From positions 224,502,001-224,566,000 of the forward strand of contig OZ024740.1 in assembly GCA_964016885.1 (NCBI GenBank): a DNA stretch of 64,000 bases. The letters run 5' to 3'. Below, one piece after another: positions 58,362 through 58,559 of the stretch. Position 1 is the stretch's first letter; each line of letters starts with the position of its first letter. Source of the stretch: Eledone cirrhosa (Eukaryota). Below the pieces are notes generated by a model. The model saw only the letters and a program-made list of their open reading frames with translations. It had not been told where the DNA came from and made no database searches. The translations under genes and the position numbers were made by a program.

Positions 58362-58559
58362 ATAACGAAGGAAATGTGGTAAGGAACCAGGTGGACCATA
58401 ACGCACCAAAGTACTCAATACTTGAGGTAGTAGAGTGGGTAATAGGAACCAGTAAGACCCCGACAGCTGAGCTCAAGCCGTTTCGACGGCTAATTCTGGA
58501 CTGAATTAGCCGTCGAAACGGCTTGAGCTCAGCTGTCGGGGTCTTACTGGTTCCTATTA
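58362..58559. mobile_element. Hammerhead family F insert with a perfect 57-bp palindrome
   Basis: Arms 58440-58496 and 58503-58559. The sense arm has gtc-GAAA-cggc ttgagctca gct-GTC-ggggtc. Flanked by (TA)n. Confidence 0.9.

Follow-up and report, generated by a model that had tools for sequence, protein, structure and literature searches.

Penelope-like elements (PLEs) with an endonuclease (EN+ PLEs) are known to leave insertions which, like those reported here, join a 5'-truncated inverted copy head to head with the element and have a tail at one end, partial tandems, a hammerhead in the pseudo-long terminal repeat (pLTR) and a palindrome at the junction (PMC8557442; PMC3846280; D. virilis Penelope, PMC2377424). 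Inverted pLTRs, tails, junction palindromes and U3:A8 hammerhead cores are already in print, and the insertion type itself is known; how PLEs come to form tandem and inverted copies is listed among the questions still to be solved (PMC8557442). The Penelope promoter is situated in its pLTR and an internal promoter is known (PMC2377424), and TATA and initiator-like motifs are described in rotifer pLTRs (PMC3846280). In vitro, a PLE protein predicted to be a dimer has two internal reverse transcriptase (RT) start sites that bound the tail, and both strands are cut and extended (PMC11167929). For L1, an untemplated 5' G has been tied to copying of the cap (PMC9341517). Here, we report that two loci in a 64,000-nt window (the whole stretch of DNA analysed; C1:224502001-224566000) of a 3.0-Gb, (TA)n-rich animal genome are minimal head-to-head insertions of a Hydra-clade PLE, and that the 5' ends of this family's arms cluster 33 to 44 nt upstream of the hammerhead cleavage site, where the RT probably runs off the 5' end of an RNA, itself probably capped, that begins in stem II.

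Positions in the element are numbered from the hammerhead cleavage C as 0 (window 58537; L041:3389, in a parent copy). In these inserts the outer ends are fixed at two positions and the arms are independent of each other; the inner ends fall in a 12-nt hot spot, with an extra G specific to purines and with varied joins. Natural insertion products of this family, thousands in number, point to two independent primings on sense RNA, both ending at a fixed RNA 5' end.

Inner ends of the arms

Genome copies were counted by exact sequence patterns. A 30-mer of the arm has 31,159 matches genome-wide, a 17-mer covering -34..-18 has 38,820 and the tail end has 20,114. Palindromes with a loop of <=30 nt occur at 10,139 loci (control, 0), and about half of all arms belong to such mini-palindromes. 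The tail (+20 to +100, ~80 nt) continues into the 5' untranslated region (UTR) and open reading frame (ORF) in intact units, and both outer ends of the inserts lie at a TAT common to element and target.

Inner ends were mapped in 94 tail-anchored insertions (90 of the first 100 tail-end places, other stored loci and the window's two). Their long arms end at -33..-44 in 54 cases, at +72..-32 in 34 (some through later deletion, as at 34710) and beyond -45 in 6 (p=3e-31 versus uniform). When arms were anchored at -30..-18 (n=169), 139 ended at -33..-44, 21 read through (7 of the 21 reassigned by eye as subfamily variants), 1 ended at -78 and 8 were unresolved. Exact extension to -51 was found for 3,229 of the 38,820 17-mer arms, a lower bound because of variants. 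The tail arm stops inside the tail in 279 inserts, and the second arm begins at -39..-46 in 99 of the 100 of these listed (by eye); solo arms joined to (TA)n begin in the same -40 region. Pairing between arms is therefore not needed for the hot spot, which is present in solo inserts and in those whose arms do not overlap. Among two-arm inserts (n=64), the arm that extends further 5' is the short one in 24 and the long one in 26, with 14 ties, so neither arm is a simple fold-back copy of the other.

Perfect palindromes of great length tend to be unstable and difficult to sequence, which might favour an assembly artefact, a segmental duplication or a history in which long palindromes were lost and short ones persisted. 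Such an origin is vanishingly improbable: the flanks are unrelated, the junctions are diverse, solo and non-palindromic arms share the hot spot, and contigs of the public runs X1 and X4 show a >10-fold depth step near -45 (depth is a coarse measure here, and X1 is perhaps the individual that was assembled).

The original prediction, made from the letters of the window, had placed the inversion in stem II of a hammerhead with gacggctaattc as the 5' strand of that stem and CTGANGA-gacggctaattc as the intact motif. That strand is the reverse complement of the 3' strand and is found in the inverted arm only. The motif had no true match in the genome pattern search: the 7 matches of the form CTGANGA-N0-4-GACGGCTAATTC in 3.0 Gb belong without exception to an unrelated repeat. 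This is the outcome that the prediction had itself named as refuting it, no intact copy having CUGANGA upstream of the hairpin. An intact hammerhead does exist in another spelling, since read-through copies read ACCCC-TTGAGAA (or TTGATAA)-G(A/C/T)TCGGCTA...TAGCCGTC-GAAA-stem III-TC-GGGGT, with GATCGGCTA next to TTGAGAA. The 5' core half occurs at 5,268 places genome-wide. U3:A8 (UUGAGAA/UUGAUAA), G10.1-C11.1, GAAA, UC and three helices agree with a type I hammerhead, and the free fold of -88..+6 is a three-way junction (no more stable than shuffles, z -0.78; spans 1 nt shorter fold otherwise) with a stem II of ~54 nt (-76..-23, a weak apical helix included) and a stem III of 6-7 bp. By sequence, the ribozyme of intact copies is a hammerhead that has a U3:A8 core and a long stem II. 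One subfamily reads CCCCTGAGAAG, which would put C3 opposite A8. At L041:3360-3375 (-29..-14), a 6-bp hairpin with a CGAA loop can form between the stem II 3' strand and the stem III 5' strand; this is the predicted fold for an RNA beginning at -40.

Plotted on this fold, as the prediction had proposed, the breakpoints form a sharp cluster within the true stem II region, on its distal 3' side and over the apical helix, where cDNA that stalls, anneals or folds back at stem II of a read-through RNA could be expected to end. We nevertheless consider this cause, put forward in the same prediction, quite unlikely. The hairpin proposed for it is absent from intact copies, the apical helix is weak, at -3.2 kcal/mol or, in a variant whose arms end alike, -0.7 kcal/mol, few arms of the 94-insertion sample stop at the base of stem III or of the proximal part of stem II, and fold-back cannot yield solo or non-overlapping arms. 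The second hammerhead family of the window (Table 1, control) reads through its long stem II in 28 of 30 copies (by eye; 21 by a strict pattern), with 1 copy ending inside stem II and 1 with a deletion; its 19-mer has 635 exact matches, some in head-to-head pairs ~0.2-0.9 kb apart. Stalling also leaves the purine-specific extra G unexplained.

This G is found where arms join the (TA)n tract. Exact genome counts gave 98 joins of the form G+A(-40), 19 of A+A(-40), 3 of G+T(-41) and 245 direct joins. Among 100 listed of 361 solo tract+G junctions (hand count), there were 36 G+A(-40), 3 GG+A(-40), 8 G+A(-35), 4 G+G(-39), 7 GC+G(-39), 1 G+A(-44), 21 native G(-39) starts and ~4 with G before a pyrimidine, the remainder being mixed. 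The extra G thus stands before a purine in 51 of 100 (39 A-40, 8 A-35, 4 G-39), compared with ~4 before a pyrimidine, yet ends at -37/-38 are common (hand counts). The tract+C class (139 loci) consists mostly of native ends at -36 to -38. The A sites (-40, -35 and -44) are each preceded by a pyrimidine. The GC junctions, seen once before G(-34) as well, can be read as an extra G and then a first A that was copied wrongly; one idea is that they reflect a modified first nucleotide.

Three other sources of the G or of the ends were rejected. Host tracts end GA in 51 and AA in 451 of 2,797 and, after G, read AG in 5 and TA in 443 of 778, which predicts the reverse of the junction ratios (Fisher p ~1e-55 and ~1e-98). 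A subfamily with native G at -41 was represented by 0 of 100 listed read-through copies (T 83, C 17; hand count). With a 3' splice site at AG -40/-39 or -35/-34 as the candidate, ends did not peak at -38/-33 and junctions had no common upstream exon.

A smaller class of ends lies at the cleavage site, where ~22 of 55 distinct loci start exactly at +1 (-8..+4 window; 100 of 486 rows, hand count), several after a T, which may in part be CpG decay. In one insert both arms end at +1 (L143), and another holds a piece of +1..208 (L172). The class is indirect evidence of in vivo cleavage by the PLE hammerhead, which was undetected in the RNA reads of PMC11167929 in the part available.

Probable run-off at an RNA 5' end and its alternatives

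The events that we propose would begin with cuts by the GIY-YIG endonuclease in both strands of a (TA)n tract. The free ends would then prime on element RNA, each at a TAT, at +97/+100 and +17/+20, the outer ends that are observed. Each cDNA would reach the presumably capped RNA 5' end within the hot spot, mainly at A(-40) and less often at A(-35), G(-39) or A(-44), often with an added C, read as the extra G. The two cDNA ends would be trimmed by a few bases and joined, which would give the varied loops, and one cDNA that stopped early or failed would leave an asymmetric or solo insert. The minority of read-through arms, which carry the whole ribozyme, likely come from longer read-through RNA, and the small +1 class was likely copied from the 3' cleavage product of the ribozyme.

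Five inserts hold pieces that run from -34..-43 to +191..+317 or +918; they probably arose when the RT changed template to short RNAs that shared this 5' end. Between-arm pieces were seen in L146/L150/L151 (C1:27.009-27.010 Mb), L130/L149, L154, L174 and L177, one of them twice in tandem (-43..+213).

Several points weigh against run-off at a capped start site. The extra G marks run-off at a physical RNA end and is no proof of a cap, ~3 of 21 independent +1 ends (hand count) also bear one, and the window's two junctions have no extra G of their own. G(-39) is not a pyrimidine-purine start, the TATA-like TATTTAAA that begins at -69 varies between subfamilies, and the hot spot overlaps the 3' strand of the weak apical helix of stem II. 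Start site and cap are deduced from DNA, nearly all of the mapped sample lies in the first 27 Mb of contig C1, and the control hammerhead family may not be a PLE. None of 30 tail-to-5' UTR loci begins at about -40 and runs through 1.6 kb of the ORF; as the captured pieces are short too, the template may have been some short RNA instead of the mRNA.

The same extra G at some +1 ends, the 0 of 30 loci with a full-length unit from -40 and the short template pieces would suit an RNA 5' end at -40 that is real and made by processing (a nuclease or small-RNA slicing in stem II), the G showing run-off only and being a terminal-transferase addition. We judge this unlikely, in view of the preference of the extra G for purines in the listed solo arms, the pyrimidine before the three A sites, as at start sites, and the location of promoters in pLTRs (PMC2377424).

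Mini-copies might also amplify themselves, if a palindromic or -40-starting stub with an internal promoter were transcribed and re-inserted. An internal promoter is known for Penelope (PMC2377424), the dominance of stubs would be explained, and some junctions recur: that of the 58362 locus was found in 6 of 50 loci (the first 50 of 10,139, hand count) and that of the 34651 locus in 1. The same 50 loci have 32 distinct junctions, the recurrent junction is found with either arm as the longer one, and captured pieces enter the ORF, which stubs lack. Stub amplification is on this evidence improbable as the general explanation. A single palindromic master is excluded, as is a miniature inverted-repeat transposable element, there being no fixed internal sequence; many -40 stubs may still contribute.

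Self-priming on an antisense template, the published reading of palindromes at inverted PLE junctions (PMC3846280, as a hypothesis), would also give head-to-head palindromes. It is very improbable here, with no account of the fixed outer ends at +20/+100 combined with non-nested and sometimes non-overlapping arms, and none of an extra G on the sense 5' end.

Run-off at the probable RNA start can be extended to a wider proposal, for and against which we see about equal weight. PLE transcription would begin inside the element's own hammerhead, so that the promoter RNA would be a half, non-cleaving ribozyme with both priming sites <=140 nt from the cap; two-ended priming would be a strong-stop dead end that leaves tens of thousands of palindromic stubs, and long copies would come only from read-through RNA, cleaved by the ribozyme in vivo. 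If this is true, the positions of transcription start, cap, both primings and ribozyme cleavage can all be read from the genome to the single base, and inverted pLTRs are explained without an antisense template.

Window loci and parent element

Coordinates of the window features are collected in Table 1. As originally predicted, the two loci belong to one family and are palindromic around TGG(ACT), 5' of GAAA-stem III-GTC-GGGGTC; the CUGANGA half is missing at both (the 5' core half and the 5' strands of stems I and II are absent), and the long arm is on the left at locus 1 and on the right at locus 2. They are likewise independent events and no segmental duplication, since BLAST matched nothing between their flanks at E<1e-3 and the arm that they share has several differences. 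Both lie within (TA)n. Other details held in part. The inversion points are near each other and not identical (long arm -40 and short arm -34 at locus 1; short arm -37 and long arm -34 at locus 2). The copy at 34651 is only partially palindromic, with perfect inverted arms of 11 bp around TGG (34696-34706/34710-34720) and a 30-nt deletion after ~34727 that takes out stem III and the cleavage site of its long arm; at locus 1, the perfect arms measure 57 bp around TGGACT (58440-58496/58503-58559). Both short arms had been said to end at cctatta, but that of the 34651 copy ends at ccta. At locus 1, TAT at +98..+100 is common to the element and the (TA)n target. An Rfam scan of the window showed no hammerhead among the 150 of 170 matches listed, only chance microsatellite/hairpin matches.

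Table 1. Window coordinates of the two insertions, their surroundings and the control hammerhead
Feature	Coordinates	Strand	Remarks
Locus 1, left (TA)n target tract	57990..58361	.	Start approximate
Locus 1, long arm, tail-bearing	58362..58502	-	Element +100 to -40; final 6 nt are the TGGACT loop
Locus 1, short arm	58503..58559	+	Element -34 to +22; usual end of such arms is CC/TAT at +17..+20
Locus 1, hammerhead 3' half	58515..58543	+	GAAA, stem III with palindromic TGAGCTCA, TC (cleavage C 58537), stem I 3' strand
Locus 1, right (TA)n target tract	58560..58616	.	End approximate
Locus 2, short arm	34653..34709	-	Element +19 to -37; other subfamily variants present
Locus 2, long arm	34710..34814	+	Element -34 to +100, internal 30-nt deletion
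Stray tail-end piece in TA tract of locus 2	34863..34882	-	20 nt
Control hammerhead, second family	34946-35030	+	Intact-looking type I; CTGAAGA-GTCCG...CGGAC-GAAA-CCATGG-TA

That the element is a PLE, as first suggested, is supported by the layout and protein motifs of the parent copy. L041 is a whole insertion, made up of (TA)n, an inverted 826-nt tail arm, a 5'-truncated copy, a full unit, the short end and (TA)n, and so has the EN+ PLE layout of a pLTR partial tandem, an inverted 5' copy and a tail at one end. Its partial tandem holds a 718-aa RT/GIY-YIG frame (a single ORF with C-terminal GIY-YIG), and tandem units are spaced ~3.5 kb. The protein has RWR, DKT, YRDD, CxCx5C, VIY...YIG, CxxC and CxH, and lacks CCHH. 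Among 30 aligned proteins, DKT is present in 30 and CxCx5C in 29, and the relatives have RWK (19) or RWR (11). Atlas neighbours at 0.96-0.97 have GIY-YIG in 26-50% and RVT_1 in 18-77% of their members; Pfam and PDB sequence searches with the 718-aa protein gave no useful match. DKT, the CxCx5C linker, CxxC and CxH, the absence of CCHH, and (TA)n targeting agree with the Hydra clade as defined in PMC8557442 section 11, to which we assign the parent as an EN+ PLE by these motifs and its layout. Tandem monomers with whole hammerheads, as in non-LTR (long terminal repeat) retrozymes, were not the pattern here, the stubs being single half-ribozyme arms.

At least 4 full 3.5-kb units stand in tandem at L157-L160 (C1:91.476-91.487 Mb) and at C1:437.200-437.211 Mb. 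Other PLE families of like type lie inside or beside copies of the 58362-locus family (L039, L045, L052, L053). The window also has three diverged copies (74%) of an RT-like repeat (928-1373, 57546-57991, 60479-60924), to which a minus-strand reading frame at L041:2-676 is similar. Inverted repeats of other families, with arms of 186-230 nt that are 90-94% complementary, occur at 17720-18254, 30253-31133 and 49996-50581 and are possibly head-to-head insertions of a similar sort.

Comparison with described systems

In the PLE literature searched, of which parts were available, no truncation hot spot at a start site is described, although spelling variants and subscription literature may add to this; searches for Penelope-like palindromes in octopus, and for Penelope twin priming with inverted GIY-YIG copies, found nothing. 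The truncation of inverted pLTRs in EN+ PLEs is described as variable in the available text, whereas in this family an arm that gets as far as -33 mostly stops in the next 12 nt, in many cases with an extra G; the described tails are 30-40 nt (~80 nt here), and mini-palindromes hold about half of the arms here. From the Hydra clade, with which it shares the features listed above (PMC8557442), the present family differs in RWR for RWK, a U3:A8 core in place of the canonical one, a unit of ~3.5 kb and tens of thousands of arms.

PAc Poseidon in vitro (PMC11167929) resembles the family in its two internal RT starts bounding the tail, the cutting and extension of both strands and an AT-rich target. 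The available text of that study leaves inverted copies unexplained and gives no reads where the hammerhead cuts. In the present genome, arms have their ends at a likely RNA start and, for a minority, at the cleavage position. The minimal hammerheads of Schistosoma Cercyon PLEs (PMC4209133) share the U3-A8 core, long helix II, short helix I and palindromic loop 3, and their motifs also occur as pairs on opposite strands. In the present family, stem II is ~54 nt, stem III is 6-7 bp and most genomic copies are half ribozymes.

Retroviral strong-stop DNA is cDNA that has run off a capped RNA 5' end. Full-length L1 insertions with an untemplated 5' G are likewise described as run-off from a capped RNA 5' end (PMC9341517, in the part available). 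In contrast to both, priming here would be only 60 or 140 nt from the RNA end, so that run-off would give stubs, two of them joined head to head.
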